Shown: positions 28,208 to 48,677 of the stretch, piece after piece
Layout of the letters: each line of letters starts with the position of its first letter
Numbering within the stretch: the stretch's first letter is position 1
Assembly (NCBI GenBank): GCA_017550035.1
Contig: JAFYLS010000079.1
Coordinates: 1,925-65,924, forward strand
Reading direction: 5' to 3'
Origin: Clostridia bacterium
GTDB taxonomy: Bacteria > Bacillota > Clostridia > Christensenellales > Aristaeellaceae
Length of the DNA: 64,000 nucleotides
Program-made: the position numbers and the translations under genes
The notes under the pieces: generated by a model
Database searches by the model: none
Seen by the model: only the letters and a program-made list of their open reading frames with translations
What the model was told of the DNA's origin: nothing

Positions 28208-28266
28208 GCAATCAGCAATACAGAAACCGTAGCCTGCCTGTTTTTTGCAGGTCTTTGGAGGATTAT

Positions 28267-30132: not shown

Positions 30133-30235
30133 AACGGAATATGGGCGTGTCGGAGGAAAATGGAATAAAATCCGGCATATGTTGAACATAGAAGAATACC
30201 ATGAACCATTTTTACAGATTGCGAGGAATGCTGGT

Positions 30236-30973: not shown

Positions 30974-31002
30974 CATACCAAAGTTGTAAAGGAGCCGTTT
31001 TG

Positions 31003-31968: not shown

Positions 31969-31986
31969 AAGGAAGGAGAATATACG

Positions 31987-32643
31987 ATGGAACTGATGAA
32001 AAGATATCAGCAGGCTGTGGAGGAGTTGCTGGAAAAAGTGCGCAATACGCAGACGGAAAATATTGTGAAGGCCGGAAACTTGATTGCCAACAGCGTTGCA
32101 AACGGCGGAAAGATCATTCTGAGCGGCATTTGCCATTCCATTGAAAACGACTTGATTTACCGGGGCGGCGGCCCGATTTTCTACAAGCACTACGAGGAAA
32201 ACGTTCACCGCAATACGCTGAAAAAGGGCGATGTGCTGGTGGTCAGCTCGGTTTCCGGCAGAACCAAGCCGGTGGTTGATCTGGCGTGGGAAATGGTGGA
32301 AAAAGGTGTAAATGTGATCGCCTTTACCAGCATGGAATATGCGGTGCAGGTGGATGCTGTGCATGAGTCCGGAAAAAAGCTGTACGAGTTTGCCACGCTG
32401 ACGCTTGATAACTGTGCTCCGGCGGCAGAAGCTATGCTGGAAGTGGAGGGAATCGAGGCGAGGTTTGCTGCGGCATCCGGTATCGCGTCGGATTATATCA
32501 TGTGGAACGTGACCAGCGTTGCCGTAGAGAAACTGCTGGAAATGGGCATTACTCCCGGTATTCTCAAGAGTGCAAATTTCCCCGGAGGAAACGATTATAA
32601 TAAAACGGTTATTGAACCGAATTTCGAAAAGTACGGATATTGA
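31987..32643 (+). CDS. SIS domain protein (second paralog)
   Basis: GGKIILSGICHS and VLVVSSVSGRTKPVVDLA SIS motifs. Same C-terminal ...GGNDYNK... pattern as the first paralog. Confidence 0.75.
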   Translation: MELMKRYQQAVEELLEKVRNTQTENIVKAGNLIANSVANGGKIILSGICHSIENDLIYRGGGPIFYKHYEENVHRNTLKKGDVLVVSSVSGRTKPVVDLAWEMVEKGVNVIAFTSMEYAVQVDAVHESGKKLYEFATLTLDNCAPAAEAMLEVEGIEARFAAASGIASDYIMWNVTSVAVEKLLEMGITPGILKSANFPGGNDYNKTVIEPNFEKYGY

Positions 32644-32749: not shown

Positions 32750-33034
32750 GCATGCGCACTTAATTGATGAGAAAAAGGCTGAATAATCCGTGCGCGGCGA
32801 TGAAAAAACAAGAAAAATACAGAATAATTCCGTGTTTTTGTAAAAATTCATAAATATGAAATAAAATAGTGAACGGTAAGAGAAGGACTGCCGTTGACAC
32901 AAAAATGAAAATGGCGTATTCTATATTATAAGAAAAAATGTGGAAGTACGTTATTTTTAGAGCTGTCGAGAGTTATTTGCTCTTTATTTAGCGTATTCAG
33001 GTACCAATATTCAAATACAGAGGGGCGGGATATC

Positions 33035-35929
33035 ATGTTCCAAAAACTCCGTGGCACTCTGATTGGCCTTGCGTGTATTGTACTGGCCATTGTACTGATT
33101 GCAGTACTTGGCGACGGCGTGCAAACCTTCAAAGCCAAATACGAAGACTATGACCTGTCTACGGATGTGACCGGTTTGGGCCGCAGCAACACGTACGACG
33201 GTTATTTGCTTGCGCATAAGGATGTTCCTTCCGGGCAACAGGATGTGCAGGTGGATGTATCTGTATTTGAAGGAGACGGTGAAGCACGCCTTTCCGAAAA
33301 CGGTGAAAACTGCGTGTATACGCCCGACAGTTCCATGGTGACCTGGAAGGTCAATGTGGAAAAGGCCGGCATGTACAACGTTGTGCTGGACTATAAAACG
33401 GTGGAATCCCGTGGTGTGGATATGGAGCGTGCGCTCTACATCAACGGCGAGGTTCCTTTTGCCGGTGCGGCTGATCTGACCTTTAACCGCCTGTGGACGG
33501 ATGCAGGTCCCGTGCGTAAGGACAATCAGGGCAACGACGTGCGTCCCACTCAGACCGAAGTGTTTGACTGGCAGACCGCTTACTGCCAGGATTCCATGGG
33601 CTATGCCGCAAACCCCTATCAGTTTTATTTTGAGGCAGGGGAGAACACCCTGTCCCTGGAAGCTGTGAATGAACCCATGCTGATCCGCGGCATTACGTTA
33701 AAGCCCGTGGTTGGCGATATGACCTATGCAGAATATATGGCGCTGCAGCCTGAGGTCGAAATGACCGAGGAAGCCAAGCAGTGGCAGATGACCGTACAGG
33801 GTGAGGATGCTGTGGTGCGTTCTTCGCCGTCTTTGTATGCCCGTTATGACCGCTCTTCTCCCGATACGTATCCCAACAGTGTGACCAACACCGTGTTCAA
33901 TTACATCGGCGGCGATCCCTGGAATAAGGCCGGTCAGTGGATTGAATGGGAATTCGAAGTGCCGGAAGACGGTTATTATTCCGTGTCCGTAAAAGCCCGT
34001 CAGGCTTATCAGCGCGGCGCCGTATCCAGCCGCAGTTTGTATATTGACGGCGAAATTCCTTTTGAAGAAGTAAAGACCATTGCGTTTGATTATGATACGG
34101 CCTGGAATTTGCTGACTTTGAAGGACGAAAAGGGCGAACCTTACAAGTTCTATCTGGAAAAGGGTGCTCATACCATCCGCCTTCAGGCTACGCTGGGTGC
34201 GATGGGCGGTATTCTCAATCAGCTGGAAGACAGCATTTACCGCCTCAATCTGATCTACCGCCGCATTCTGGTATTGACGGGCGTGAACCCTGACCGTTTC
34301 CGCGACTACAATCTCGCCGGTCAGTTCCCCGAAGTACTGGAAGCTATGGACCTTGAAAGCAAGCGTCTTTACAAGCTGGTGGATGACACCGTTGCCATTA
34401 CCGGTCAGAAGAGCGACCGTGTAGCGGTAGCCCAGACGCTGGCTGTACAGCTTGAAAACTTTGTGGAATACAACGAACGTATTACGCAGCAGTTTGTAAA
34501 CTTCAAGGATAACATTACCAGTCTGGGTACGGCCATGCAGAACATGGCGGAAACCAAGCTGGATGTGGATGCCATCATCATCAGCGGTGAAAAGGCTGAA
34601 CTGCCGAAAGTCCGGGATGGCTTCCTCCGCAAGGCGGTGCACGAGATCAAATCCTGCGTGGCGTCCTACTTTGTGGACTACAACGCACTGGGAGATACCT
34701 ATGATGAAGATGAAGTCAAGGATGACCTGATCGAAGTATGGATCGTGACGGGCCGTGACCAGAGTACCGTGCTCAAGACCATGGTTGACGATACCTTTAC
34801 TCCTGCAACGGGCATTAAGGTAAACGTTAAGCTGGTTGTGGCTGATACGCTTTTGACCGCCGTTGTGGCCGGTAACGGCCCCGACGTGGTACTGTCTCTA
34901 GGTACCTGGTTCCCGGTCAACTATGCTATGCGTAACGCAGCGGAAGATCTGACTCAGTTTGAAGACTTCGAAGAAGTGATAAAACCCTTCTACGAAAGCG
35001 CTTTGACCGCCATGCGCTATGAAGGCGGTGTGTACGGCCTGCCCGAAACCCAGGAATTCTCCGTGCTGTTCTACCGCGAGGATATTCTGGAAGATCTGGG
35101 GCTGACTGCACCTTCTACCTGGGCTGATCTGATCGGCATGCTGCCTACCATTCAGGGTAACAACCTGTCCGTTGGTATTCCTTATCCGGATATCACCACG
35201 GTAGATATGTCCATCCTGAATTCCCTGATCTATCAGAACGGCGGCCGTATTTACGGTGAAGGCAACAAGAAGACCTTGATCGATAATGAAAACGGCGTAA
35301 CGGCCTTCAAACTGTATACCTCTTTGTATAATGACTACGGCCTTCCCACCGTGTTCGACTTTGTCAGCCGTTTCCGTTCCGGCGAAATGCCGCTGGGCCT
35401 GTTCCCCTACAGTACGTACAATACGCTGGTGGTATCTGCCCCCGAAATCCGCAACCTGTGGGATTTCGCCCTGTTCCCCGGCACTGTGCAATCGGATGGG
35501 ACCATCGACCGCAGCGTACATTCTCAGGGTCTGTGCTGCATGATGGTGGCAACGGATGACGAAAACGTCAAAAAGAATGCATGGGAATTCATGAAGTGGT
35601 GGACCAGCGCCGATTCTCAGGTGCGTTTCGGTCGAGAAATTGAAAGTATTCTGGGTTCTTCCGCCCGCTACGCTACCGCTAACTGCGATGCACTGGAACA
35701 GCTGGCCTGGAGCGCTCCGCAGCTGCGCGTGCTGAAAGAACAGCAGAGCTACACGGTAGGCTTCCCGGAAATCGCCGGCGGTTACTCGACCACTCGTCAT
35801 ATGACCAACGCCATTCGCCGCGTCATCAACACCAAGGAAGATGCCCGTGAAACGCTGATGACGTACGCACGAACCATTAATGATGAAATCCGGATCAAAC
35901 GTATGGAATTTGATCTGCCCATTGACTGA
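33035..35929 (+). CDS. membrane-anchored 964-aa fusion: N-terminal TM helix, two CBM-like beta-sandwich modules, C-terminal ABC solute-binding (family 1) domain
   Basis: The TM helix is LIGLACIVLAIVLIAVLG, with no lipobox. A duplicated module carries R.LYI(N/D)GE(V/I)PF and PY.FY.E.G...L. The C-terminal half (IEVWIVTGRDQSTVLKTMVDDTFTPATGIKVNVKLV...GNGPDVVL) is typical of SBP_bac_1. Confidence 0.75.
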   Translation: MFQKLRGTLIGLACIVLAIVLIAVLGDGVQTFKAKYEDYDLSTDVTGLGRSNTYDGYLLAHKDVPSGQQDVQVDVSVFEGDGEARLSENGENCVYTPDSSMVTWKVNVEKAGMYNVVLDYKTVESRGVDMERALYINGEVPFAGAADLTFNRLWTDAGPVRKDNQGNDVRPTQTEVFDWQTAYCQDSMGYAANPYQFYFEAGENTLSLEAVNEPMLIRGITLKPVVGDMTYAEYMALQPEVEMTEEAKQWQMTVQGEDAVVRSSPSLYARYDRSSPDTYPNSVTNTVFNYIGGDPWNKAGQWIEWEFEVPEDGYYSVSVKARQAYQRGAVSSRSLYIDGEIPFEEVKTIAFDYDTAWNLLTLKDEKGEPYKFYLEKGAHTIRLQATLGAMGGILNQLEDSIYRLNLIYRRILVLTGVNPDRFRDYNLAGQFPEVLEAMDLESKRLYKLVDDTVAITGQKSDRVAVAQTLAVQLENFVEYNERITQQFVNFKDNITSLGTAMQNMAETKLDVDAIIISGEKAELPKVRDGFLRKAVHEIKSCVASYFVDYNALGDTYDEDEVKDDLIEVWIVTGRDQSTVLKTMVDDTFTPATGIKVNVKLVVADTLLTAVVAGNGPDVVLSLGTWFPVNYAMRNAAEDLTQFEDFEEVIKPFYESALTAMRYEGGVYGLPETQEFSVLFYREDILEDLGLTAPSTWADLIGMLPTIQGNNLSVGIPYPDITTVDMSILNSLIYQNGGRIYGEGNKKTLIDNENGVTAFKLYTSLYNDYGLPTVFDFVSRFRSGEMPLGLFPYSTYNTLVVSAPEIRNLWDFALFPGTVQSDGTIDRSVHSQGLCCMMVATDDENVKKNAWEFMKWWTSADSQVRFGREIESILGSSARYATANCDALEQLAWSAPQLRVLKEQQSYTVGFPEIAGGYSTTRHMTNAIRRVINTKEDARETLMTYARTINDEIRIKRMEFDLPID

Positions 35930-35953
35930 GAAATGTGAAGGGAGTGAGACTGC

Positions 35954-36892
35954 ATGAAATCTTTGGCCGCAAACTACATAACGATGAAGCGTGAAAGGCT
36001 GCATTATGACTGGGAAAAAGCCAAGCGCATGAAGATGTGCTACCTGTTCCTGCTGCCGTATGCGCTCCTGTTCTTCACGTTCTTCATTCTGCCCATTGCT
36101 TCTTCCATCTACTTCAGCTTCACCAACTACAACATTCTGGAACCTCCGAAGTTCATTGGTCTGCAGAACTACATCAATCTGGTTCTGCAGGATGAAGTAT
36201 TCCTGACGGCTGTGAGAAACACGCTGGTCATCGCTGTCATCACGGGCCCTGTGGGCTATATTCTGTCTTTCCTGTTTGCGTGGTTCATCAATGAACTGCC
36301 CCGCTGGCTGCGTACGTTGGCTGTTGTGGTCTTCTACGCGCCCTCCATCGCGGGCAACGCTTTCTACATTTTCTCCATTATCTTCCGAGGAGATGTGTAC
36401 GGCTACCTGAACTCCATTCTGGTGGAGCTGGCGCTGATTGATGCACCCAAACTGTGGCTGCTGGATCCCAATCTGATGATGCCCGTTATCATCATCGTCA
36501 TTTTGTGGATGAGCATGGGCACCGGCTTCCTTTCCTTTGTTGCCGGCCTGCAGGGTGTGGACCGGAGCATGTATGAAGCCGGCTATGTGGACGGCATCCG
36601 CAACCGCTGGCAGGAACTGTACTACATCACGCTGCCCAGCATGAAGCCCATGCTGCTCTTCGGCGCCGTGATGAGCATCACTTCTGCATTCAACGTGTGC
36701 GATGTTCCCCGTGCGCTGGCCGGTTATCCCAGTACGGACTATGCGGCCCGCACCATCGTTACGCACTTGTTTGACTACGGTTTTTCCCGTTTCGAAATGG
36801 GCTATGCATCGGCCATTGCAACAGTTCTGTTCCTGCTGATGATCCTGTGCAATAAGGCCATTCAATCCATGCTGAGAAAGGTGGGCACTTAA
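35954..36892 (+). CDS. CUT1 ABC permease (MalF-type)
   Basis: 312 aa. The EAA loop is MYEAGYVDGIRNRWQELYYITLP. Confidence 0.88.
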   Translation: MKSLAANYITMKRERLHYDWEKAKRMKMCYLFLLPYALLFFTFFILPIASSIYFSFTNYNILEPPKFIGLQNYINLVLQDEVFLTAVRNTLVIAVITGPVGYILSFLFAWFINELPRWLRTLAVVVFYAPSIAGNAFYIFSIIFRGDVYGYLNSILVELALIDAPKLWLLDPNLMMPVIIIVILWMSMGTGFLSFVAGLQGVDRSMYEAGYVDGIRNRWQELYYITLPSMKPMLLFGAVMSITSAFNVCDVPRALAGYPSTDYAARTIVTHLFDYGFSRFEMGYASAIATVLFLLMILCNKAIQSMLRKVGT

Positions 36893-36894
36893 GT

Positions 36895-38073
36895 ATGAGT
36901 ATGAATCCAACTCCTTATAAGCCTGCCAAGAGAACCCGGGGCGACATTCTGCATGAGCAGATGGTGCTGCGCGGCGAAATCGTGGAAAATAAAGAACCGG
37001 TAAGCCATAAGAAGTTTATCATCATTTCTTCAATCATTATGGCGCTGCTCATTGCAGTAGTAGTGGTTTCCTTCGTGCGTGTGGATGCTGTGGAATCGGC
37101 AGCATTGCAGGGACTGGAACTGCCAAAGGATGCAGCCTATGCTTCCATTTACATGGTGGGCAAGGTGGCAGGTATTGTGATTGGCGCAGGCTATCTGTTC
37201 TTCGCGCTGATTCATGTGCTGGCCCCCAAACGCCGCAAGCCCAACCGCAGCTTCTGGGGCGATCTGGGCATTTACCTGATGCTGGCAATCGTAGCTGTTG
37301 CCATGGCATTTCCGCTGGTTTTCTCCATCGCTTCTTCTCTGAAGCCGCTGGATGAACTGTTCCGCTTCCCGCCCAAGGTGTTTCCGCAGCATGTTACGCT
37401 GGATAACTTCAGCGATTTGTTTGTAACCTTGAGCCAGAGCTATGTGCCCTTCTCCCGTTATCTGGTGAATACCGTATTTATCACCTTTGTGGGTACCTTT
37501 GGGCATCTGTTCATTGCTTCCATGGCGGCATTCGTGCTGGCAAAGTATGATTTCCCCGGCGGAAAAACCTTCTTTAGTATCGTTGTCACGGCTCTGATGT
37601 TCTCCGGTTATGTAACAGGCATTCCCAACTATGTCATCATGAGCAAACTGAAGATGATCGATACCTACTGGGCAGTCATTCTTCCTGCGTTCGCGGCCCC
37701 CATTGGTCTGTTCCTGATGAAGCAGTTTATGGAAGGTCTGCCGGATGCGCTGATTGAAGCGGCTCATCTGGACGGCGCCAGTGAAATGCGTATCTTCTGG
37801 AGCATTGTGATGCCGAATGTGAAGCCTGCGTGGCTGACCATTATCATCTTCTCCGTGCAGAGTCTGTGGAACACTAACGCTGCAACGGTCATTTATTCCG
37901 AAAGCAAAAAAACGCTGGTCTATGCGCTGCAGCAGATTCAGGCGGGCGGCGTCGCCCGTGCCGGTCAGGCTGCGGCGGTCACGGTCATCGTGATGCTGGT
38001 TCCCATTACCATTTTCGTTCTGTCTCAGAGCAACATTCTGGAGACTATGGCCAGTTCCGGTCTGAAGGATTGA
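36895..38073 (+). CDS. CUT1 ABC permease (MalG-type) with an N-terminal extension of about 115 aa
   Basis: The EAA loop is LIEAAHLDGASEMRIFWSIVMP. The extra N-terminal region contains two additional hydrophobic segments. Confidence 0.85.
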   Translation: MSMNPTPYKPAKRTRGDILHEQMVLRGEIVENKEPVSHKKFIIISSIIMALLIAVVVVSFVRVDAVESAALQGLELPKDAAYASIYMVGKVAGIVIGAGYLFFALIHVLAPKRRKPNRSFWGDLGIYLMLAIVAVAMAFPLVFSIASSLKPLDELFRFPPKVFPQHVTLDNFSDLFVTLSQSYVPFSRYLVNTVFITFVGTFGHLFIASMAAFVLAKYDFPGGKTFFSIVVTALMFSGYVTGIPNYVIMSKLKMIDTYWAVILPAFAAPIGLFLMKQFMEGLPDALIEAAHLDGASEMRIFWSIVMPNVKPAWLTIIIFSVQSLWNTNAATVIYSESKKTLVYALQQIQAGGVARAGQAAAVTVIVMLVPITIFVLSQSNILETMASSGLKD

Positions 38074-38117
38074 CGAAAGACAGGGTGGGACACATCAAGA
38101 AAGGTGGGAGGATGACC

Positions 38118-39629
38118 ATGAAAACAGCAATCAGGCTAACTGCATTGGTGCTTATACTTGCGCTGCTGCTGCCTGTGGGAATGGCTTTTGCCAGTACAGA
38201 CGGTCACAACAGCATATATACCTATAACTACGACTATTGGGATGACTACAAGGAAACGCCGGACGCATACCGTGTGGATCAGGTGCTTTACAGCTCCACT
38301 CTGGAACTGGAAACGCCCATGCGCCGTCCTCAGAGCCTGTATGTACGCGATGAGGAAATCTTTGTATGTGATACCGGTAACAACCGTATACTGCAGATCC
38401 ACCGTGATGGAGATGCATATACGCTGGTTCGTATCATTGACAAGATCGCGGGTGCAACGCCTGAAACCTTCAGCGCGCCCAGTGATGTGTTTGTGGATGA
38501 AGACGGTAACTTTTACATTGCCGATACCAACAATAACCGCGTGGTGAAAGCAGATAAAGACCTGAACTTTGTGCTGGCTTTCACGCAGCCTCAGGATGCT
38601 ACGTTTGATCAGAACCTGAGCTTCCTTCCGGATAAAATCGTGGTGGACGTGTCCGGGCGCGTGTATGTGCTGGCAACCAATGTGAACAAGGGTCTTGTGA
38701 AGTTCGAAAATGACGGTACTTTTACCGGCTTCATTGGTGCAAATCCCGTTGTGTATACCATGTGGGATTACATCTGGAAGAACTTTTTCACTACCAAAGC
38801 GCAGCGTGCGCAGCAGGCGTCCTTTGTTCCTACGGAATATGAAAACATCTGCATCGATAACGAAGGTTTCATATATGCCACTAACATCGTGTTCAGCGAA
38901 TATGACTTGATCTGGGATAATGCCAAGCCTATCCGCAAACTGAACAGCATTGGCAATGATATTCTGGTTAAGAATGACTGGTATCCGCCTATCGGCGATT
39001 TGCACTGGGTGGAACAGAGTCAGGAATACGGTCCTTCCAAGTTTGCCGATATTACCGTGTTTGACAATGACATCTATGTTGCCTTTGATAAAACCCGCGG
39101 CAGATTGTTTGGCTACGATCCGCAGGGCATCATGCTGTGGGCATTTGGCACCAAGGGCAACAGCGACGGCGCATTCCTTTCGGCCGCATCCATTGAAAGC
39201 ATGGGTTTTGATCTGTTTGCACTGGACGAAAACGAATGCTCTATCACCGTGTTTACCCCTACCGAATACGGCAGCCTGATCTATCTTGCCAGCGATCAGT
39301 ATCTCCGCGGTGAATATGATGAATCGGCTGATACCTGGCGGGAAGTGCTTCGTCTCAATGCCAACTACAATCTCGCCTTTATTGGCATTGGCCGCGCGCT
39401 GATGCGTCAGGAAAACTACAAAGAGGCGATGGACTATTTCAAAATGGCCTATGACCATGAGAACTACGGCCGTGCATACCGCTATTACCGCAAGGAACTG
39501 GTCGAGGAGAACATTGTGTGGGCAGTAGCTGCAATTGTGATTGTGCTGGTTGTTCCGCTGGTTGTGCTCCAGGTGAAGAAAATGAAGATGGAGGTGGAAG
39601 CGTATGAGCGTCAAAAAGTTATCAAGTAA
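38118..39629 (+). CDS. secreted NHL-repeat beta-propeller protein with a TPR-like segment and a C-terminal TM anchor
   Basis: The signal peptide is MKTAIRLTALVLILALLLPVGMAFAS. NHL-type repeats are VCDTGNNRILQI and IADTNNNRVVKAD. The TPR-like segment is NYKEAMDYFKMAYD. The C-terminal TM is VWAVAAIVIVLVVPLVVL. Confidence 0.7.
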   Translation: MKTAIRLTALVLILALLLPVGMAFASTDGHNSIYTYNYDYWDDYKETPDAYRVDQVLYSSTLELETPMRRPQSLYVRDEEIFVCDTGNNRILQIHRDGDAYTLVRIIDKIAGATPETFSAPSDVFVDEDGNFYIADTNNNRVVKADKDLNFVLAFTQPQDATFDQNLSFLPDKIVVDVSGRVYVLATNVNKGLVKFENDGTFTGFIGANPVVYTMWDYIWKNFFTTKAQRAQQASFVPTEYENICIDNEGFIYATNIVFSEYDLIWDNAKPIRKLNSIGNDILVKNDWYPPIGDLHWVEQSQEYGPSKFADITVFDNDIYVAFDKTRGRLFGYDPQGIMLWAFGTKGNSDGAFLSAASIESMGFDLFALDENECSITVFTPTEYGSLIYLASDQYLRGEYDESADTWREVLRLNANYNLAFIGIGRALMRQENYKEAMDYFKMAYDHENYGRAYRYYRKELVEENIVWAVAAIVIVLVVPLVVLQVKKMKMEVEAYERQKVIK

Positions 39630-40281
39630 AACCAAGACGCCCCATCCTGCGTGGCAGAGATACAAGGATTCAGTCAAATATGCCAAACATGTGATCTTCC
39701 ATCCCTTCGACGGTTTCTGGGACCTTTCCCGTGAGAACCGCGGTTCATTGGCGGCAGCCCATACTTTTCTGGCTCTGTTTTTGATGACCCGCGTACTTAA
39801 ACTGTTGTATACCAATTTCCAGTTCATCAATGCCCCGATTCAGTATATCAACATCTATGAGCAGTGTGCTTCGCTGCTGCTGCCGTTCCTGGTGCTGTGT
39901 CTTGCAAACTGGAGCCTTTCTACATTGTTTGACGGAAAGGGCCGCTTCCTAGATATATATATGGCCATGTGCTATGCACTGGTGCCTTATATCATCATTC
40001 AGCTGCCGCTGATTTTCATCAGCCACATGATTTCTTTTGACGAAGCGTCCTATTACACGGTGCTGATGAGTGCAAGCGTGGTCTGGTCCCTGTTCCTGGT
40101 CTTTGCCGGTCTGATGCAGGTGCATGATTATGGCCCCGGAAAAACTATCATCTTCGTGATTGCCACCGTGTTTGGTGCGCTGGTCATCTTGTTCCTGGTT
40201 CTGGTGTTCTTCAGCCTGCTGAGCGATGCGCTGGGATATTTCGTGTCTCTGTACCGCGAGATTGTTTTCAGGCTTCATTAA
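39604..40281 (+). CDS. Yip1-domain polytopic membrane protein
   Basis: 225 aa and 5 TM segments. The N-terminal HPFDGFWDL... is typical of bacterial YIP1-family proteins. Overlaps the upstream gene by 26 nt. Confidence 0.65.
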   Translation: MSVKKLSSKTKTPHPAWQRYKDSVKYAKHVIFHPFDGFWDLSRENRGSLAAAHTFLALFLMTRVLKLLYTNFQFINAPIQYINIYEQCASLLLPFLVLCLANWSLSTLFDGKGRFLDIYMAMCYALVPYIIIQLPLIFISHMISFDEASYYTVLMSASVVWSLFLVFAGLMQVHDYGPGKTIIFVIATVFGALVILFLVLVFFSLLSDALGYFVSLYREIVFRLH

Positions 40282-40296
40282 GGAGGGGAGAGTAAG

Positions 40297-42870
40297 ATGA
40301 GAAAGAAAAAATCCCTTTTTCGTAAACTGCTTCCCTGGATGATTTCTGCTGCATTGATTGCCGCGCTGGTGATTTTTGTGGGGATTCCGCTGTATGCGCC
40401 TCAGGAAACAGTGAACCTTGCAGAAGCGGAAGTCTTCTATTACGAGGGCGATAAGAAGGCTCTGACCCTGGAAAACGATAAACTGCTGTTTGAAATGGAT
40501 CCCACAACGACCTATTTCAAACTGACGGAAAAGGAATCCGGTCGTGTGTGGCTGTCCAACCCGGAAAATGCAGCCAAGGATAAAGTTGCTGTTTCCGCCA
40601 ATAAGGGCATGCTGCAAAGCACGCTGGCCATGACCTATTCTTCTTCCAATGGTGTAATTGAGTACAACAACTACCAGTATTCCATCGAGAATGGCAACTA
40701 CCGCATTGAGCAGCTGGAAGATGGGATTCGGGTAGAATACGCCATTGGTAAGATTGAGAAGATTTACATGCTGCCTCAGGCTATCACCGTGGAACGCATG
40801 AATCTGTTCGTGGACGCCATGAGCAGCAAAGATGCCAAGAAAGCCAAAACGGTGTATACCCTGATGAAGCCGGATAAGGTGCAGGAACGTGACGACAAGG
40901 ATGAACTGCTTGCGCTGTATCCGGAACTGGCAAATCAGGAACTGTACATTCTCAAGAGCGATACCAAGGAAAGCAACAAGGAAAAGATTGCCGAAAGCTT
41001 TATTGCAGCCGGTTATACACAGGAAGAGTATGATACCGATATGCAGCTGGTAGCGGGCGCTGCCAAAATAGAACAGGCGATCTTCAACGTGACGGTGGAC
41101 TATAAGCTGGATGGGGGAGATCTCATTGTAGAAGTTCCCTATCAGGAAATGCGCTATCCTGCAGATAACCCCATTACACATGTGACGGTGCTGCCTATGT
41201 TCAACGCAGCCGCAACGGACGAAGAAGGTTTCATGTTCGTACCTGAAGGCGGCGGCGCCATCATCCGTTACAACAATGGCAAACTGTCTCAGAACAGTTA
41301 TTTCGCCAATATGTATGGATGGGACTGGGGTTCTGAACGAACCGAAGTGGTGCATGAAACCAAGAACGTTTTCCCTGTTTTCGGCATGAGCCGTGCGGAT
41401 GGATCCTTTATCTGCATTGTGGAAGGCGCTCAGTCCTATGCAGGCGTGATGGCGGATATTTCCATGCGCTACAACAGTTATAACTGGGCATGCGTGAAAT
41501 ACAATGTCATTCACAGTGACCGTTATAATGTTTCTGCCAAAACGGAACGTCTGCTCTACATGTTTGAAAAGGAAATGCCGGATGTAACCATTGCACAGCG
41601 CTACCGCTTCCTGGACAGCAATGATTATGTAGGCATGGCCGCTGCGTATGGTGAATACCTTCGTGAAACGCATCCTGAACTTGTGCTGAATGGCGCTGCA
41701 GAAGAAGTTCCCGTTTCTGTGGAGCTGGTGGGCGCTATTGACAAGACGGTTGTCAAGTTCGGTCTTCCTGTGGATTCCGTGGTTCCTGTGACAACTTTTG
41801 AAGATGCGCAGGTTATTCTGGATGATCTCAAGGATCATGGTGTACGCAACCTGAATGTCCGATTCAGCGGATGGATGAACGGCGGCGTTAGCCAGAAGGT
41901 TCTGAGCAATGTGAAAGTGCAGCGTCAGTTGGGCGGCATGGCGGATATGAAAAAGCTGATTGCCTATGCCAAGGAAGAAAACATTCCACTGTACTTTGAT
42001 GGGATTAGCTGCTTTGCCTACCGCAGCGGTATTCTGCAGGGCTTCCTGCCTTACCGCGATGCAGCAAGACTGACTACCCGCGAACAGATTAAGCTCTATC
42101 CCTATTCTGCAGTAACCTTCATTCCTGCGGAATACATGGATGCGTATTATCTGGTGCAGCCGGGTTACGCGCATGAAAAAGCTGCAAATCTTCTTGAGGC
42201 ACTGGATGAAACGGACGCCTATGGCGTTGCATTCCGCGATATCGGCAGTGTTCTCAGCGCGGATTACAACCCCAAAAAGACTGTGACCCGCGAAGAAGTG
42301 AAAGCGATGAATCTGGAAACCGTTGCGAAGGCCCATGAAAACGGCCAGAAGGTGATGGTGAAGGAAGGTTTCGATTTCGTACTGCCTTATGCGGATCTGA
42401 TTACGGACATGGATCTGGATGGAACCAACTACTCTATCCTGGATGAAACCGTGCCCTTCTATCAGATTGCCATGCACGGCATGGTGGATTACACGGGCGC
42501 TGCCATCAACCTGGCTCCTGACTGGCTGGAAGAAGTGCTGCGCTGTGCCGAATACGGCGCCGGTCTCAACTTCACGTTCATGCAGGAAGATGGCAAGATC
42601 GTTCAGGAAACCGATTATTCCGGACTTTTCGGTGCGGAATATGAAGGCTGGAAGGAAAAGGCACTGGATATTATCCGGAAATATCAGGATGATATGCAGG
42701 GTCTGAATCAACTGAGAATTGTTGGCCATGAACAGCCGGCACACCGTGTTACCGTGACCGAATACGAAAACGGCACCCGGGTGTATGTGAACTACAGCAA
42801 TGCGGACTATACGGAAGGTGAAATCACCGTTCCTGCCCGCAGCTACATCGTCGCAGGGAGGGATCAGTAA
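40297..42870 (+). CDS. 857-aa N-terminally TM-anchored extracellular protein, DUF5696-like (putative novel glycan-active enzyme)
   Basis: The TM helix is LLPWMISAALIAALVIFVGIPL. No CAZy catalytic motif was recognised by eye. The DUF5696 assignment is from memory of the gene neighbourhood (Yip1 + DUF5696 next to ABC permeases in Firmicutes). Confidence 0.5.
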   Translation: MRKKKSLFRKLLPWMISAALIAALVIFVGIPLYAPQETVNLAEAEVFYYEGDKKALTLENDKLLFEMDPTTTYFKLTEKESGRVWLSNPENAAKDKVAVSANKGMLQSTLAMTYSSSNGVIEYNNYQYSIENGNYRIEQLEDGIRVEYAIGKIEKIYMLPQAITVERMNLFVDAMSSKDAKKAKTVYTLMKPDKVQERDDKDELLALYPELANQELYILKSDTKESNKEKIAESFIAAGYTQEEYDTDMQLVAGAAKIEQAIFNVTVDYKLDGGDLIVEVPYQEMRYPADNPITHVTVLPMFNAAATDEEGFMFVPEGGGAIIRYNNGKLSQNSYFANMYGWDWGSERTEVVHETKNVFPVFGMSRADGSFICIVEGAQSYAGVMADISMRYNSYNWACVKYNVIHSDRYNVSAKTERLLYMFEKEMPDVTIAQRYRFLDSNDYVGMAAAYGEYLRETHPELVLNGAAEEVPVSVELVGAIDKTVVKFGLPVDSVVPVTTFEDAQVILDDLKDHGVRNLNVRFSGWMNGGVSQKVLSNVKVQRQLGGMADMKKLIAYAKEENIPLYFDGISCFAYRSGILQGFLPYRDAARLTTREQIKLYPYSAVTFIPAEYMDAYYLVQPGYAHEKAANLLEALDETDAYGVAFRDIGSVLSADYNPKKTVTREEVKAMNLETVAKAHENGQKVMVKEGFDFVLPYADLITDMDLDGTNYSILDETVPFYQIAMHGMVDYTGAAINLAPDWLEEVLRCAEYGAGLNFTFMQEDGKIVQETDYSGLFGAEYEGWKEKALDIIRKYQDDMQGLNQLRIVGHEQPAHRVTVTEYENGTRVYVNYSNADYTEGEITVPARSYIVAGRDQ

Positions 42871-43856
42871 TGGCAAAACAGAAAAGCTTGAATCCCCGCC
42901 GTGAACGCTGGGGGCTGAAGGAATCTGTGCTGACCTTCATTCCCGGCAACGCGACCTACCGTACCATGCGCGCGCGCAATGCGCGTCAGGGCGTACTGTT
43001 CATCCTGCCGCTCATCATCGGTTTCCTGGTCTTTATGGCCAAGCCGCTGGTGGAATCGCTGCTGATGAGTATGAGCAACGTGCAGATCAAGATGGGTGAG
43101 GGGTATACCCGCACCTTTACCGGTATTCTGAATTATGAATACGCGCTGACGGTAGATCCCTACTTTAACCAGCGTCTGGTGGAAGAAATCGGACGAATGG
43201 GTTTGAATGCCATTGCCACGCTGGTTATGTCCTTCGTGGTTGCTGTAATCCTCAATCAGGAATTTAAGGGCCGCGCCCTGGCACGCGCCATCTTCTTCCT
43301 GCCCGTGATTCTTTCTTCCGGCGTTCTGCCCGGCATAGAATCCCAGAATGAGTTCTATAATATGATGCAGGGTATCTCCGACGAGATCGCCAATCAGTCC
43401 GGTGTGAACCTGTCTGCGTCCCTGCAGCAACTGCTTCAGGTATCCGGTATGGGCAGCGGTGTGTTTGATATCCTGTTTGACATGATCGATTCTATTTACG
43501 ATATCGTCATGGCCAGCGGTATTCAAATCATCGTGTTCCTCAGCGGTCTGCAGAGCATTTCTCCTTCCCTGTATGAAGCGGCGGATATCGAAGGCTGCAC
43601 CGCTTGGGAATCCTTCTGGAAAATCACGTTCCCCATCGTCAGCCCGCTGCTCTTGGTCAACTGCATATACACCATTATCGACTTCTTTATGAAGAACGAT
43701 AACAAGGTGATGGAACGAATCAATGAAGTGATGTACAGCCAGTTCCGCTTTGGCGAAAGTGCCGCCATGAGCTGGATTTACTTTGGTGTTGCTCTGGCGT
43801 TCATCGGCATTGGCTCCTTCATCATTACCAGGGGGGTGCAATATTATGAAGACTAA
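42870..43856 (+). CDS. CUT1 ABC permease (MalF-type), second importer
   Basis: The EAA loop is LYEAADIEGCTAWESFWKITFP. The ATG overlaps the upstream TAA (TAATG). Confidence 0.88.
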   Translation: MAKQKSLNPRRERWGLKESVLTFIPGNATYRTMRARNARQGVLFILPLIIGFLVFMAKPLVESLLMSMSNVQIKMGEGYTRTFTGILNYEYALTVDPYFNQRLVEEIGRMGLNAIATLVMSFVVAVILNQEFKGRALARAIFFLPVILSSGVLPGIESQNEFYNMMQGISDEIANQSGVNLSASLQQLLQVSGMGSGVFDILFDMIDSIYDIVMASGIQIIVFLSGLQSISPSLYEAADIEGCTAWESFWKITFPIVSPLLLVNCIYTIIDFFMKNDNKVMERINEVMYSQFRFGESAAMSWIYFGVALAFIGIGSFIITRGVQYYED

Positions 43857-44853
43857 TACTGCACACACTGTGAAGCACAGAGATTTCTGGGAGGCCAACC
43901 GCCAGTCGGGCGGTTACCTGCTGAAAGCCAGAATAGGGAAGGCGGCTGTGTCCATCGGCCGTGCGCTGCTGTTGTTTGGTTTGTGCTTCATGATCATTCA
44001 GCCTATGCTGACCCGTTTCGGAACCAGTCTGATGGCGGAAAACGACCTGTACGATTCTACGATCGTGCTGGTTCCCCGCAATCCTACGCTGGATAACTAC
44101 CGAATCGTAGGTATCTTGACCGGTATGCCCAAGTCCATGCTGAACACCCTGTGGACGTCGCTGATGGTATCCGTGCTGCAGGTGTGTTCCTGCACATTGG
44201 TGGCGTATGGTTTTGCCCGCTTCAACTTCCCGTTGAAGAAAATGTGGTTTGCCTGCGTGATCGCATTGATCATCATCCCGCCGCAGACCATTGCCACTTC
44301 GCTGTACATGTTCTTTGCCAACTTTGATATACTGGGTATATTCAAAGCGCTGACCGGTAAAAAACTGGCACTGCACGGCTCCATCTGGCCTTACGCCATG
44401 ATGAGCTTGACCTGCATGGGTCTCAAGAACGGTCTGTATATCTTCATGCTGCGTCAGTACTTCATGGGTATTCCCAAGTCGCTGGAAGAAGCTGCCTACG
44501 TGGACGGCTGCAGCACCATGCATACCTTCGTGAAGATCATGCTGCCGGACGCTGTGCCCACCATTACCAGCTGCTTCCTGTTCTCCTTTGTGTGGCAGTG
44601 GACCGACCTGTTCTACAGCCGTAACTTCCTCAGCGGTTACGGCGTGTATTCCGTGCAGCTGTCCTCCATCGTTTCCCGAATGAACCGTTTCTTCTCTGCA
44701 GATGCCAATACGCCCGTTATTACGCCTGTCGGACGTCAGCAACAGCTGATTTCCATCGGCGTACTGATTTGCTGTATTCCGCTGATCATTCTGTATCTGT
44801 TTGCACAGAAGACCTTTGTAAAGAGCATCGTCATGTCCGGTTCCAAAGAATAA
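43846..44853 (+). CDS. CUT1 ABC permease (MalG-type), second importer
   Basis: The EAA loop is LEEAAYVDGCSTMHTFVKIMLP. ATG 43846 overlaps the upstream gene by 11 nt. Confidence 0.85.
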   Translation: MKTNTAHTVKHRDFWEANRQSGGYLLKARIGKAAVSIGRALLLFGLCFMIIQPMLTRFGTSLMAENDLYDSTIVLVPRNPTLDNYRIVGILTGMPKSMLNTLWTSLMVSVLQVCSCTLVAYGFARFNFPLKKMWFACVIALIIIPPQTIATSLYMFFANFDILGIFKALTGKKLALHGSIWPYAMMSLTCMGLKNGLYIFMLRQYFMGIPKSLEEAAYVDGCSTMHTFVKIMLPDAVPTITSCFLFSFVWQWTDLFYSRNFLSGYGVYSVQLSSIVSRMNRFFSADANTPVITPVGRQQQLISIGVLICCIPLIILYLFAQKTFVKSIVMSGSKE

Positions 44854-44866
44854 TTGGAATTTGTAC

Positions 44867-44895
44867 TTGCATCTTTATTCAGGGTGTGGTATAAT
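44867..44895 (+). promoter_or_regulatory. internal extended -10 promoter for the second SBP gene
   Basis: TTGCAT (44867-44872), 17 nt, TGgTATAAT (44887-44895). Confidence 0.6.
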
Positions 44896-44994
44896 CTGGG
44901 TAACGTCAATTGTATCCCATCGAATCTGTATGTGCTTCCCGCTCGTTCCTATGGGGAAGTGCATGTGGAAATATATTTTCAGGAGGAACCCGTA

Positions 44995-46356
44995 ATGAAG
45001 AAAATGGTTGCTCTGCTGCTGGCCCTCATGATGGTTGTGGCCTGCATGCCCGCTCTGGCTGAATGGCCTGAAGGCTATCCCGAAGTCGTTGAAGGTATCG
45101 ACTTTGGCGGTCAGACCATCTACATCTATGACTACTGGACCGCTGATGACACCCGCAAGGATGATCCCAGCGAAGAAGAACAGGCCCAGTACGACTACCG
45201 TGACTGGATCATGGAAACCTACAACTGCGAAATCCGTCAGATCCAGAAGGGCGACTGGACTACCAACGTTCAGGAACTGACCAATTTCTGCACCAGCCCC
45301 GATGGCACCCTGTGCCTGTACATCCTGCCTCCGGACTTCGTCGGCACCCCCATGGGTAACGACCTGTTCGCTGCCTGGGAATCCGAAAACATCGATTTCG
45401 AAGATGACAAGTGGAACGACTCCACCATCAACTTCATGACCAAGGGCGGCAAGGTGTACGGTGTTGCTACCGGCAACTCCGAACCCCGTCAGTGCCTGTT
45501 CTTCAACAAGCGCGTGCTGGAAGAAGCCGGTATCGATTGGGAAACCATCTATGACATGCAGGCTGATGGCACTTGGACCTGGGAAGCTTTCGAAGAAATG
45601 CTGATCCAGATCACCAAGGATACCGATAACGACGGCGTTATCGACATCTACGGTATGACCGGTAACAACTCCGATATGTTCATGATGGGCGTTGTGTCCA
45701 ACGGCGGCGAATTCTTCCGCTTCAATGACGAAGGCAAGCTGGAAATCGCTGTGAACAGTGACGCTGCTCTCGAAGGCCTGGCCTGGACCAAGGACGTGTT
45801 CGCAAAGTACTTCTATCAGCAGCCCGCTGACGGCTCCTGGGACTACTTCAAGGCTGCCTGGCTGCAGGGCTTCTGCGGCTTCTACATGTATCAGACCTAC
45901 GGCGGCTTCAACGACAACAGCGAACTCGCTCCCATGGAAGACGAATGGGGCTGCGTTGCATTCCCCAAGGGCCCCAAGGGCGACAAGTATGTGTCCATCG
46001 TGTCTGACAACGTGACCGTTATCCCCAACGTTTACGAAGCTGACGTGGCTGCTGACCTGGCTTACATCTATGACCTGTGGTCCAACGCCACTCCCGGTTA
46101 TGACGATGAATTCGCTTGGATTGGCAACAAGTACAACTTCACCGATGACCGCGCTGTGGACGAGACCTACGCCATGCTGCGTGAACCCGAACACTGCGTT
46201 GCCAACGCCGCTCTGTATATCGGTTCTGTGAACGACGTGCTGGGCAGCCCCCTGCTGTGGCAGCTGGCTGGCGGCACCCCCGCTGAACTGGTTGAAGCTG
46301 CTACCCCCGCCTGGCAGGCTCTGTGCGATGCCTTCAACGGTGTGGCTGCTGAATAA
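44995..46356 (+). CDS. extracellular sugar-binding lipoprotein (ABC SBP family 1)
   Basis: The signal peptide with lipobox is MMVVAC. AGGAGG lies upstream of ATG 44995. Very strong preference for C/T-ending optimal codons by eye. Confidence 0.85.
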   Translation: MKKMVALLLALMMVVACMPALAEWPEGYPEVVEGIDFGGQTIYIYDYWTADDTRKDDPSEEEQAQYDYRDWIMETYNCEIRQIQKGDWTTNVQELTNFCTSPDGTLCLYILPPDFVGTPMGNDLFAAWESENIDFEDDKWNDSTINFMTKGGKVYGVATGNSEPRQCLFFNKRVLEEAGIDWETIYDMQADGTWTWEAFEEMLIQITKDTDNDGVIDIYGMTGNNSDMFMMGVVSNGGEFFRFNDEGKLEIAVNSDAALEGLAWTKDVFAKYFYQQPADGSWDYFKAAWLQGFCGFYMYQTYGGFNDNSELAPMEDEWGCVAFPKGPKGDKYVSIVSDNVTVIPNVYEADVAADLAYIYDLWSNATPGYDDEFAWIGNKYNFTDDRAVDETYAMLREPEHCVANAALYIGSVNDVLGSPLLWQLAGGTPAELVEAATPAWQALCDAFNGVAAE

Positions 46357-46371
46357 TCTCGCTTAAATTGC

Positions 46372-46404
46372 GGACCGCTGCACGAAAGTGCAGCGGTCCT
46401 TTTA
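46372..46404 (+). terminator. rho-independent terminator
   Basis: ggaccgctgcac-gaaa-gtgcagcggtcc is a 12-bp perfect stem with a GNRA loop, followed by TTTT. Confidence 0.9.
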
Positions 46405-46520: not shown

Positions 46521-47252
46521 TCAAAAAATGGGCGTAAGTGATATGTGACTTTGAATACTGTATATGCAGTGGGCTAAAGATTGATCAATATAGTTAAAAT
46601 ACTCATCCTTTGAAATAAGCATACCGGAAAATGGCATATCACTTGATGGAGCAGGGACTTTCACCATCACCTTCAGCTTGCGCGATATGGCACCCGGTGG
46701 GAGAAAAGGTACATAATCAGGAAAGGAATCAATAAAAGGCAATAATGTGAGAAAAGGTGAATCGGGATATTTCTCCAGCAGCTCTTTCTCAAACAGATCC
46801 ATATCGTTTTTTCTGCACTGAAAAGGGATGATCTGCTTGGCATTTTTCCATGAAGGACTGATGTGATCAATTTCTTTGCGAAGAACCGGATCGGTAGACA
46901 TTCGAGACCACATGGCATGTGTGCGCTGCGGGTCATCGCAGATAAGGTGCTGAAAAGCGGCATCGACAATCAAATGTGCATAATAACCCCACCAGAACGA
47001 AGCTTCCTCCTTGGATAGAATGGTGCGCTGAGAAAGAAAATGGTCCAGAAACCATTGGCAATCGGAAAGAGACTTACGCTTACGCTGCATAAAATGAGTT
47101 ACTTCTCTGGGCGGAATAAATGCAGTCCAATCATCGTTTTCCAGATTGCAGTCCGGTGCAACAGAGCCAACGCAGAACTCCTTCGTGCAAAGATAGGGAA
47201 GCTCTTCAAGAATGCGCTGGGCTATGAACTGGTGTGTAATCCAGTTGGCCAT
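46521..47252 (-). CDS. hypothetical protein (weak resemblance to the zinc-dependent phospholipase C-like metal-binding N-terminus)
   Basis: 243 aa. MANWITHQFIA... has a W-x-T-H start, and HLIVDAAF is also present. Family not established. Confidence 0.5.
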   Translation of the reverse strand: MANWITHQFIAQRILEELPYLCTKEFCVGSVAPDCNLENDDWTAFIPPREVTHFMQRKRKSLSDCQWFLDHFLSQRTILSKEEASFWWGYYAHLIVDAAFQHLICDDPQRTHAMWSRMSTDPVLRKEIDHISPSWKNAKQIIPFQCRKNDMDLFEKELLEKYPDSPFLTLLPFIDSFPDYVPFLPPGAISRKLKVMVKVPAPSSDMPFSGMLISKDEYFNYIDQSLAHCIYSIQSHISLTPIF

Positions 47253-47309: not shown

Positions 47310-48515
47310 TTACTTTTTCAGCACTTCCATAACCTTGTACAAAACATCCTTATCTTCCAGCTTTTCGTTGAACAGACCGCAGTACGGGCTGTTGAGGCTG
47401 TAAGTATAGGTGCCGGGTTTATCGTTGGGATTGTCGGTAAGCCCCCAGATGGCCACACAATTCAGGGGATTGTTGCCATTTTCATCCCCCAGAGAAACGA
47501 ATGCTTTGAAAAGGTTGGTATAGAATTCGGTATGCTCTTCCGTATATGCAAGATCAAAGTTTCGTACGGCCATTTCGGTAATCTGCACTTCAAAACCGGC
47601 ATTGGCATAATTGAGGATTGCATTCTTGATCATACCGACGTGGGCAGGTTCCAGACAGCCGGTCTGCGTCCCGTAGCCGCCAATGTAGCCCTGCATGCCA
47701 ACGCCGTCCATCAGTTTGCGGTAGTTGCCATTTTCATCCTTGGCAAAGGTGTTCACGCTGTTGCCGAGCGCCAGAATGGCTTCGGCTTTATCGGTGAAAT
47801 AGGCGTTATAATCGTTGTAGTAAAGCTTGATATCTGCGCCCAGCGTTTCCACCGCATTGCGGGCGTAAAGGAAGGAAAGCGCCACATAATCATCGCCCAT
47901 ATACTTCTGGAACAAGTTGTCCCCTCCGTTGCGTTTGGTGCGCAGATGCCGGGGATCATTGGGTGCAAATTCGGTAATATTGTCGCCAACTGCTTCGTTT
48001 ACCACATCCCAGCAATAGACAACGCCGGGGAATTTTTCCTCAAAATGGGTGATAACCTGGGTAATGTAGTATTCTGTGCGGGCTTTGATAGTTTCCGCAT
48101 CAGCGTAGGGCTTGTTATTGCTGTATTCTTCGCGGAAGAACCAGTCGCACATATAAGCGTCCCAAACCAGCACATGTCCGCGCACCTGAAGACCGTTTGC
48201 CTTTGCCCAGCCGACCATGGCATCAGCAGCGGTGTAGTTGATTGCCGGCATACCGTCTTTGGAACGTTTGCTGCCCGCCTGGTCCAGCATGGAATAGGCC
48301 TTCATTTCATTGGTCATGGTCACGCTGTTGAAATGCTTTTTCAGCAGATTCAGATACTTGGTATCGCGCAGTTGATAATAACTCATGGCAGCGCCCATTT
48401 TGAAACCATGGGGTGCAGCCAGTTTATGAAGCACATCTTCTTCCTGAGAAAGAGCAGGGGAGCAGAAAGCGAGCAGAATGGAAAGAATCAGGAAAGCGCT
48501 CAGAATGATCCGCAT
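47310..48515 (-). CDS. glycoside hydrolase family 10 endo-beta-1,4-xylanase, secreted
   Basis: The signal peptide is MRIILSAFLILSILLAFCSPALS. GHVLVW, WDVVNEAV (acid/base Glu) and VQITEMAV (nucleophile Glu). AGAGG lies 7 nt upstream of ATG 48515. The 641-aa track ORF is an artefactual upstream extension. Confidence 0.88.
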   Translation of the reverse strand: MRIILSAFLILSILLAFCSPALSQEEDVLHKLAAPHGFKMGAAMSYYQLRDTKYLNLLKKHFNSVTMTNEMKAYSMLDQAGSKRSKDGMPAINYTAADAMVGWAKANGLQVRGHVLVWDAYMCDWFFREEYSNNKPYADAETIKARTEYYITQVITHFEEKFPGVVYCWDVVNEAVGDNITEFAPNDPRHLRTKRNGGDNLFQKYMGDDYVALSFLYARNAVETLGADIKLYYNDYNAYFTDKAEAILALGNSVNTFAKDENGNYRKLMDGVGMQGYIGGYGTQTGCLEPAHVGMIKNAILNYANAGFEVQITEMAVRNFDLAYTEEHTEFYTNLFKAFVSLGDENGNNPLNCVAIWGLTDNPNDKPGTYTYSLNSPYCGLFNEKLEDKDVLYKVMEVLKK

Positions 48516-48677
48516 ATAAATACCTCTTTCTATATGAATTTTCTTCGAAAATATTTTACCATATCCATAAGGGAAATACCATAACTTTTCGTGTGGATCA
48601 TAAATAATGATTGACAAAATATTTGAATTATGGCAACATGAAATAAAAGAAACTGCATAATTTCGGAGGGGTCTGAC

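Follow-up and report, generated by a model that had tools for sequence, protein, structure and literature searches.

A triad of NHL propeller, Yip1 and DUF5696 proteins as a candidate accessory module of Firmicute carbohydrate importers

Introduction

Gram-positive loci for CUT1-type ATP-binding cassette (ABC) importers, of the MalEFG/MsmEFGK type, have in common family-1 solute-binding proteins, MalF/MalG-like permease pairs and a shared or in-locus ATPase, together with glycoside hydrolase (GH) neighbours and LacI, AraC or two-component regulators. The subject of this study is a locus of this general kind in a 64,000-nt stretch of DNA from a member of the Clostridia (contig JAFYLS010000079.1; hereafter the window, whose positions serve as coordinates for the locus), and in particular three consecutive genes at 38118-42870 on the + strand, which encode an NHL beta-propeller protein, a Yip1-domain membrane protein and a DUF5696 protein. 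In contrast to the usual CUT1 loci, the operon carries two permease pairs with this triad as an obligatory presence between them, and a membrane-anchored binding protein of ~960-1100 amino acids with tandem repeats resembling carbohydrate-binding modules (CBMs). While the sugar ABC importer is a known type of locus, the accessory triad is deeply conserved and uncharacterised.

Separate parts of the triad resemble components of described systems. Bacillus YknW, a Yip1-family membrane protein encoded with an ABC transporter, has been reported to modulate the assembly of that transporter, YknXYZ (PMC4887032); the statement in an earlier note on this DNA that Yip1 proteins are functionally unknown in bacteria was therefore inaccurate. 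YknYZ, however, is a MacB-type exporter whose partner is a membrane-fusion protein and whose role is protection from a peptide toxin, whereas the transporters here are binding-protein-dependent sugar importers, and the Yip1 protein has a large NHL-TPR ectodomain tied or fused to it. The DUF5696 protein is remotely related to NagBb, the alpha-N-acetylgalactosaminidase of Bifidobacterium bifidum, and to DagB (ZGAL_3152), the alpha-1,3-(3,6-anhydro)-D-galactosidase of Zobellia galactanivorans. DagB, itself proposed to lie outside GH129 at 16% identity, combines an N-terminal beta-sandwich with a TIM barrel and an Ig-like domain at the C-terminus; three residues are essential to it, Asp202 (from the other monomer), Asp486 and Glu517, of which NagBb shares only Asp486 (PMC5698469). 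DUF5696 has the same three-domain layout, with profile matches that are collinear at the N-terminus, the start of the barrel, a 'G...PY.D' segment and the C-terminus, but its identity to these enzymes is 13-14%, it is ~200 residues longer and carries an N-terminal membrane anchor, and it does not conserve their acid/base residues. GH101 is a more distant fold relative. Unlike DUF5696, the characterised GH129 enzymes are not known to have NHL, Yip1 or permease partners, GH129 gene neighbourhoods being outside this comparison. Finally, there is a functional analogy, and nothing more, with the Sus-like systems of Bacteroidetes, in which surface capture proteins, a tethered enzyme and a dedicated transporter are encoded together; the components are non-homologous, the envelope differs, and the energy comes from TonB rather than ATP.

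The reading favoured here, with moderate confidence, is that carbohydrate importers of Firmicutes have a conserved accessory module with the triad as its core, and that the triad would form on these importers a membrane complex for the capture and trimming of glycans. Firmicutes that degrade fibre carry the module in rumen, gut, soil and digesters, among them Christensenellales, Lachnospiraceae (Butyrivibrio) and Paenibacillus, and no function has been described for any of the three core proteins in a sugar-importer setting. No paper mentioning DUF5696 or PF18952, and none linking Yip1 and NHL proteins with sugar importers, was found in a search that had subscription-only literature outside its reach; the searched literature thus agrees with the earlier remark that no functional study of the triad is known.

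Organization and conservation of the triad

The triad forms the middle of a run of nine closely spaced + strand genes (33035-46356), assigned with Pfam and NCBIfam, and is surrounded by two CUT1-type permease pairs and two solute-binding proteins. Its own genes are the following.

38118..39629, + strand: protein of 503 amino acids with an NHL propeller, TPR-like helices and a C-terminal transmembrane (TM) helix (Pfam, AlphaFold2, hydropathy)
39604..40281, + strand: Yip1-domain polytopic membrane protein of 225 amino acids (Pfam Yip1)
40297..42870, + strand: DUF5696 protein of 857 amino acids with an N-terminal TM anchor and a GH129-like ectodomain (Pfam, profiles, AlphaFold2/Foldseek)

All three are present and overlap or nearly abut, as had been described. 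GGAGG lies 6 nt ahead of the ATG start of the NHL gene at 38118. The NHL and Yip1 genes overlap by 26 nt, with the Yip1 Shine-Dalgarno sequence GGAGGTGG inside the NHL coding sequence; a gap of 15 nt separates Yip1 from DUF5696, whose start is preceded by AGGAGG; and the first permease gene of the downstream pair, B1, starts on the final base of the DUF5696 stop codon (a 1-nt overlap, TAATG). These gene junctions point to translational coupling. The NHL-Yip1 overlap also contains CAAAAAG, and a programmed frameshift joining the two proteins was considered and rejected, there being no conserved slippery run in ~100 loci. Since the Shine-Dalgarno sequence within the overlap is kept in these ~100 loci, ordinary translational coupling is the better explanation.

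Conservation of the arrangement was followed through several collections. In species genomes, scanning gave 80 loci at 51-70% identity, in Clostridia/Christensenellales metagenome-assembled genomes from the guts of ruminants, horses and humans. The same nine genes stand in the same order in every one of these loci with enough flanking sequence, and the triad is kept in all 76 that could be evaluated. Individually looked-up loci have the order NHL-Yip1-DUF5696-permease-permease in seven cases out of seven, including one (L086) in which NHL and Yip1 are fused; the other six keep this order at 27-44% identity, among them one with a DUF5696 protein of 2431 amino acids. A metagenome scan seeded with the distant L086 clade added 79 loci, with NHL and Yip1 directly upstream of DUF5696 in 61 of 64 evaluable loci by script and 63 of 64 by eye. 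Two permeases directly follow DUF5696 in 68 of 69 genome loci by script (69 of 69 by eye), 7 of 7 looked-up loci and 66 of 66 metagenome loci. The order NHL-Yip1-DUF5696-permease-permease is therefore found in essentially all evaluable loci, ~165 in total, down to 27% identity. A giant binding protein of the type that opens the operon in the window (SBPbig, see below) is upstream in 68 of 69 genome loci; in the distant loci it lies upstream with its permease pair in just 22 of 47 and is sometimes downstream instead, so the invariant core is reduced to NHL-TPR-TM(-)Yip1, DUF5696, B1 and B2, in that order.

Two records in a plasmid collection carry the DUF5696 family. On plasmid pNP243 of Butyrivibrio fibrisolvens D1 the module is complete and is preceded by genes for a sensor kinase, an AraC-type response regulator and a GH43 enzyme; a plasmid of Paenibacillus cellulosilyticus KACC 14175 has the module with a fused NHL-Yip1 gene, annotated 'YIP1 family protein', in an operon whose first gene encodes a MalK-type ATPase (ABC_tran+OB_MalK+TOBE_2). 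The earlier note had mentioned Yip1 and DUF5696 neighbours of sugar permeases in other Firmicutes, and Butyrivibrio and Paenibacillus bear this out; the counts above show that the triad is conserved as a unit, well beyond what chance would give, and always next to ABC permeases. As the module is present in two cultured strains, it is open to experiment.

It could be argued that conserved order reflects no joint function and that these are three independent accessory proteins of a polysaccharide-utilisation operon, as such operons commonly gather unrelated helper genes. This is very unlikely: the order stays invariant from 27% to 90% identity, in both Clostridia and Bacilli, while the remaining operon is rearranged, and the NHL and Yip1 genes are recurrently fused and the genes translationally coupled.

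As a separate observation, two loci (L089 and L107) lie on one metagenome contig, FZPS01000177.1, with two DUF5696 modules within ~20 kb, which means that tandem paralogous copies of the module occur in some genomes.

The NHL and Yip1 proteins

The first protein had been described as a secreted NHL beta-propeller with a TPR-like segment and a C-terminal TM anchor, a description on which Pfam, the structural model and hydropathy agree. The Pfam NHL match is clear (E 3.6e-12, 46.1 bits against a cutoff of 20), while TPR_2, TPR_16 and TPR_1 match below threshold (E 2e-5 to 1.5e-4; TPR_2 24.8 bits against a cutoff of 27, TPR_16 24.7 against 32.7) and are seen again in homologues. By crude hydropathy, residues 9-27 are a signal or TM segment and residues 468-486 a TM helix, after which comes a basic tail, suggestive of a type I membrane protein with its ectodomain outside. 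The AlphaFold2 model (pLDDT 74.5) begins with a propeller of six four-stranded blades (residues 53-383), continues with TPR-like helical hairpins (385-446) and ends in a long helix containing the TM segment. The nearest structures by Foldseek are the NHL domains of TRIM71, Thin, Lin41 and TRIM2 and the Pizza6 designs (E 1e-15 to 1e-10), the NHL-domain matches reaching E 4e-15 with a TM-score of 0.75-0.77 on the target; virginiamycin B lyase follows at 8e-10. Many positions of the protein are kept across distant clades in the alignment.

The second protein, earlier taken to be a five-TM Yip1-domain protein, has a full-length match to Pfam Yip1 (PF04893; E 1.5e-15; 57.9 bits, where the cutoff is 28.6; positions 1-171 of the 173 in the model) and is polytopic, with 4-5 hydrophobic segments by crude hydropathy. 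Residues kept across distant clades include P34, G37, W103, G111, G113, P128, E147, H174, E219 and R223. The two proteins are one polypeptide in 43 metagenome loci, in L086 and in P. cellulosilyticus. In L086, NHL, TPR and Yip1 occupy a single protein of 712 amino acids that keeps the TM helix and basic linker ahead of the Yip1 domain and is collinear with both window proteins, which fits a cytoplasmic C-terminal tail of the NHL protein and a cytoplasmic N-terminus of Yip1. The recurrence of this fusion in many lineages is strong evidence that NHL and Yip1 work together physically.

These features raise the alternative that the triad is a sensor or regulator, in which the NHL-TPR protein senses a glycan or an envelope cue and Yip1 modulates the activity or assembly of the permeases. 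NHL propellers are extracellular ligand-binding domains in other bacterial proteins, such as PknD, and the Pizza6 designs, which derive from PknD, are among the closest folds to this propeller. YknW modulates transporter assembly and transports nothing itself, and the charged residues E147, H174, E219 and R223 are conserved in the membrane part of Yip1. The triad, however, is without a signalling output domain, and many loci have regulators of their own, either LacI or AraC proteins or a kinase paired with a response regulator of AraC type. Nor would a sensor role account for DUF5696, the enzyme-like partner that is obligatory. A sensor or regulator role is accordingly considered quite unlikely.

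The DUF5696 protein

The assignment of the third protein as a DUF5696 protein with an N-terminal TM anchor, made earlier from the sequence, was confirmed by a near-complete Pfam match (PF18952; E 1.5e-191; 638.5 bits, where the cutoff is 25.6; residues 243-850, aligned to positions 2-612 of the 612 in the model) and by crude hydropathy, which gives a single TM helix at residues 12-30. The family is large, with 4,767 clusters at 50% identity with E <= 1e-3 and 2,538 at E <= 1e-30; the representatives listed here are the best 150 of the 4,767.

A single-sequence search of PDB sequences gave a weak match to the N-terminal part of DagB (5opq, 8rzg, 8rzk; E 5e-4 over 54 residues). With a profile of 49 close homologues the DagB match reached E 4e-9, in four stretches collinear in both proteins, and a profile of 60 diverse members (26-47% identity) gave E 2e-12 to ZgGH129/DagB and 2.5e-6 to NagBb. 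The AlphaFold2 model (pLDDT 78, pTM 0.78, three low-confidence loops) has an N-terminal beta-sandwich, a (beta/alpha)8 barrel and a C-terminal beta-sandwich. Its top Foldseek matches in the PDB are 5opq, 8rzk and the 5wz* entries (E 3e-31 to 5e-22), among them DagB (5opq; E 2.8e-31, TM-score 0.65 on the target) and NagBb (5wzr; E 3e-24, TM-score 0.67 on the target), followed by GH101 endo-alpha-N-acetylgalactosaminidases at ~1e-14 and by GH36, GH31 and GH13 at ~1e-10 to 1e-8. DUF5696 is thus firmly placed as a remote homologue of GH129 and GH129-like glycosidases with a glycosidase fold; the relationship is remote only, with a structural-alignment identity of 12-14%, below the family-level sequence similarity of CAZy GH129. 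Judged from sequence and model, enzymatic activity is likely but not assured, and DUF5696 is probably a new glycoside hydrolase family.

An alignment of 294 sequences shows conservation of the polar residues D/E317 (98%; motif VP[DE]GxG), D343 (97%), E376 (92%), D656 (93%), R665 (99%), D716 (92%), N738 (99.7%), E752 (95%) and H811 (95%). By its spacing to the 'G...PY.D' segment, D656 fits best as a counterpart of the catalytic Asp486 of DagB and D435 of NagBb. Two stretches are invariant within the clade of the window protein, FRD648, where strand 4 ends, and K689-E690-G-x-D693, which follows strand 5; the segment KEGFDFVLPYAD aligns to EHGQEQWIPYFD of DagB, with DagB Glu517 opposite K689/E690. 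D648 (FRDIG) and E690/D693 (KEGFD) were considered as a catalytic pair and set aside, being conserved in the window clade only and not family-wide. The active-site search that the earlier note had proposed for this protein therefore yielded a glycosidase fold and conserved acids, but no fixed set of catalytic residues.

Several observations weigh against a capture-and-trim module. No single catalytic pair could be assigned from the 294 aligned sequences. D656 is Asn in 19 of the 294, ~18% of members are without one of D656, D716 and E752 through genuine substitutions in the alignment, D648 is conserved in 60% of members, and the acid/base position (NagBb E478, DagB E517) is mostly Gly, Lys, Asp or Asn in the family, usually Gly. 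Because these candidate acids vary, some or all DUF5696 members might bind glycans rather than cleave them. Foldseek returned generic NHL domains and no enzyme-specific match for the NHL propeller. Beyond the best 150 clusters there may be remoter DUF5696 proteins without NHL, Yip1 or permease partners. Lastly, inference of the substrate from gene context was tried and given up, as the flanking enzymes differ by locus (xylan, mannan, chitin and sulfated-glycan enzymes), and the glycan-enzyme context may in part reflect genomes rich in carbohydrate-active enzymes.

Part of this evidence suits a complex of the same composition in which DUF5696 is not an enzyme but a glycosidase-derived glycan-binding or gating protein that holds polysaccharide chains at the transporter, much as the surface glycan-binding proteins of Bacteroidetes do. 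D716 is changed in ~25 and E752 in ~13 of the 294 sequences, in addition to the Asn substitutions of D656, and the loci are otherwise intact; the GH129/DagB acid/base positions are unconserved; and the most invariant polar residues, Arg665 and Asn738, are of a kind typical of ligand binding. Against this, ~82% of members keep D656, D716 and E752 all together, plus D/E317, D343 and E376, and NagBb and DagB differ in their catalytic residues, yet both are active (PMC5698469). A non-enzymatic DUF5696 is on balance unlikely.

Some DUF5696 proteins are longer, with 2431 amino acids in L088 (10001-17296) and 1622 and 1008 in P0126 and P0124; Pfam gave no informative matches for the long additional regions of these proteins (1008-2431 amino acids). 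PADLOC defence-protein models had no match to the NHL, Yip1 or DUF5696 protein.

Importer genes and proposed mechanism

The rest of the operon consists of the following features.

32894..32922, + strand: promoter-like site (TTGACA, 17-nt spacer, TATTCT), a consensus match only
33035..35929, + strand: SBPbig, giant membrane-anchored solute-binding protein of 964 amino acids (Pfam SBP_bac_1, E 2e-23)
35954..36892, + strand: ABC permease A1, MalF/UgpA-like, CUT1 type (BPD_transp_1, E 7e-13)
36895..38073, + strand: ABC permease A2, MalG/UgpE-like (BPD_transp_1, E 1e-12; UgpE-like, E 6e-29)
42870..43856, + strand: ABC permease B1, divergent MalF-like (BPD_transp_1, E 9e-8)
43846..44853, + strand: ABC permease B2, MalG-like (BPD_transp_1, E 3e-15)
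44995..46356, + strand: second solute-binding protein, a probable lipoprotein beginning MKKMVALLLALMMVVAC... (SBP_bac_1, E 1e-6)
46372..46399, + strand: strong intrinsic-terminator-like hairpin ending the operon (12-bp stem with 9 G-C pairs, then a T run)

The promoter-like site lies in the 390-bp gap upstream of the operon, in a region where such consensus sites are no more numerous than in shuffled sequence, and the hairpin begins 16 nt past the last stop codon of the operon. Together with the overlapping and abutting genes, these signals indicate that the triad is co-transcribed in a nine-gene operon. All four permeases match BPD_transp_1, so that the triad does lie between two permease pairs, as first noted. 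A1 has NCBIfam GlcT and UgpA-like matches under their equivalog cutoffs, and A2 has an N-terminal extension of ~120 amino acids with extra hydrophobic segments by hydropathy. The start of B2 at ~43846 is a likely ATG that overlaps B1 by 11 nt, inferred from the translation and from the same ~11-nt overlap in related loci.

SBPbig has an N-terminal TM helix (residues 7-25), two tandem CBM-like repeats, a region without matches and a family-1 binding domain at ~560-870; the internal repeat has E 6e-11, and CBM_35 and Golvesin_C matches are sub-threshold. Among solved structures, its binding domain is closest to the Listeria oligosaccharide-binding protein Lin1841 (E 4e-16), and the second binding protein to 6rjy, which binds arabino-oligosaccharides (E 3.5e-9). 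With four BPD_transp_1 and two SBP_bac_1 proteins, and with UgpA, UgpE, MalF and MalG-like matches, these are CUT1 importers, and EAA-type loops are visible in the translations of all four permeases. No MalK/MsmX-type ATPase is encoded in the operon, and a crude motif scan of the window gave one PotA-like ATPase and one other. These two ABC ATPase-like open reading frames, at ~58293 (- strand, PotA-like) and ~24546 (+ strand), have Walker A and LSGG motifs, and neither looks like MalK/MsmX. In Firmicutes, ATPases are usually shared between importers and encoded elsewhere.

These components bear on whether the module could instead export or build an extracellular glycan, with DUF5696 as a transglycosylase. 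The wider alpha-glycosidase superfamily does include transglycosylases, in GH13 and GH31, but the permeases, with their EAA loops, belong to the type found in binding-protein-dependent importers, there are two solute-binding proteins, the Paenibacillus operon has a MalK-type ATPase, and the neighbouring genes are catabolic. Such a role is extremely unlikely.

Under the favoured capture-and-trim reading, the NHL propeller and the DUF5696 domain would both face outward, each held at the membrane by a single TM helix, and the triad would form a physical complex with the permeases. The NHL-TPR ectodomain would be a ligand-binding or partner-binding module. Yip1, joined covalently or non-covalently to the NHL protein, would be an intramembrane scaffold that docks the NHL and DUF5696 ectodomains beside the downstream permease pair, on the model of YknW in YknXYZ assembly. 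DUF5696 would trim or cleave captured glycan at the cell surface, and the products would pass to the two binding proteins and on to the two importers, powered by a MalK/MsmX-type ATPase encoded elsewhere. A bolder version is doubtful, in which NHL-Yip1 and DUF5696 are stably united with the downstream pair in a single supercomplex, so that the enzyme and the propeller 'receptor' are integral subunits of an ABC importer of a new class; if true, polymer cleavage and uptake would be mechanically coupled at the Gram-positive membrane, with the enzyme from a new glycoside hydrolase family.

The coupling of surface glycan processing to import is much better understood in the Sus systems of Bacteroidetes than in Firmicutes, and docking of the triad on the permeases, if true, would show how Gram-positive bacteria couple such processing to ABC import. 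Bacterial Yip1 proteins would then also have another role, independent of the first, as scaffolds of ABC transporters. DUF5696, if active, would define a new family of glycoside hydrolases, with GH129 and GH101 as its relatives.

Neighbouring genes and other loci

Downstream of the operon in the window lie the following genes.

46521-47252, - strand: Zn-dependent phospholipase-C-like protein, past the terminator
47310-49235, - strand: GH10 xylanase-like open reading frame, with the GH10 domain in the C-terminal 370 amino acids alone
48678-49901, + strand: GH5 gene

Because the GH10 domain is confined to those 370 amino acids, the true start of the GH10 gene is probably internal. GH10 and GH5 genes are also downstream of the module in ~15 related genomes. 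Across loci, the flanking families include LacI and AraC regulators, GH10, GH5, GH26 with CBM35, GH130, DUF1861 and GH43 with CBM6, as well as GH39, GH3, GH18, GH95, GHL6 and sulfatases. This context points to catabolism of plant and other complex glycans; as the flanking enzymes vary widely between loci, no substrate is assigned.

Several individual loci have other company. In three of them the position of the second binding protein is held by a large protein without a significant Pfam match: 1282 amino acids in L086 (13656-17504), 651 in L083 (14575-16530), which has a sub-threshold GH66 match, and 635 in L124 (16071-17978). On the P. cellulosilyticus plasmid (L169, 15787-25010), the genes after the module encode four flavin-dependent oxidoreductases of the LLM class, an oxidoreductase that depends on NADPH and a further two binding proteins, unusual company for a sugar importer. 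On a Lachnospiraceae-like contig (L081, 18219-22592), YknX-like membrane-fusion proteins and a MacB/FtsX-type permease are encoded directly downstream of the module; this is probably a coincidence, worth recording given the YknW precedent.

Elsewhere in the window, phmmer with the operon proteins found a second, unrelated sugar ABC cluster at 14099-17349 (- strand), with two permeases and a binding protein. At 28255-32643 (+ strand) lies a group encoding a protein of 625 amino acids with a BT_1020-like beta-propeller and a sialidase-like CBM, a SIS protein, a BadF/BadG-type ATPase that is N-acetylglucosamine-kinase-like, and a second SIS protein; this group looks like an amino-sugar or sugar-phosphate processing cluster.

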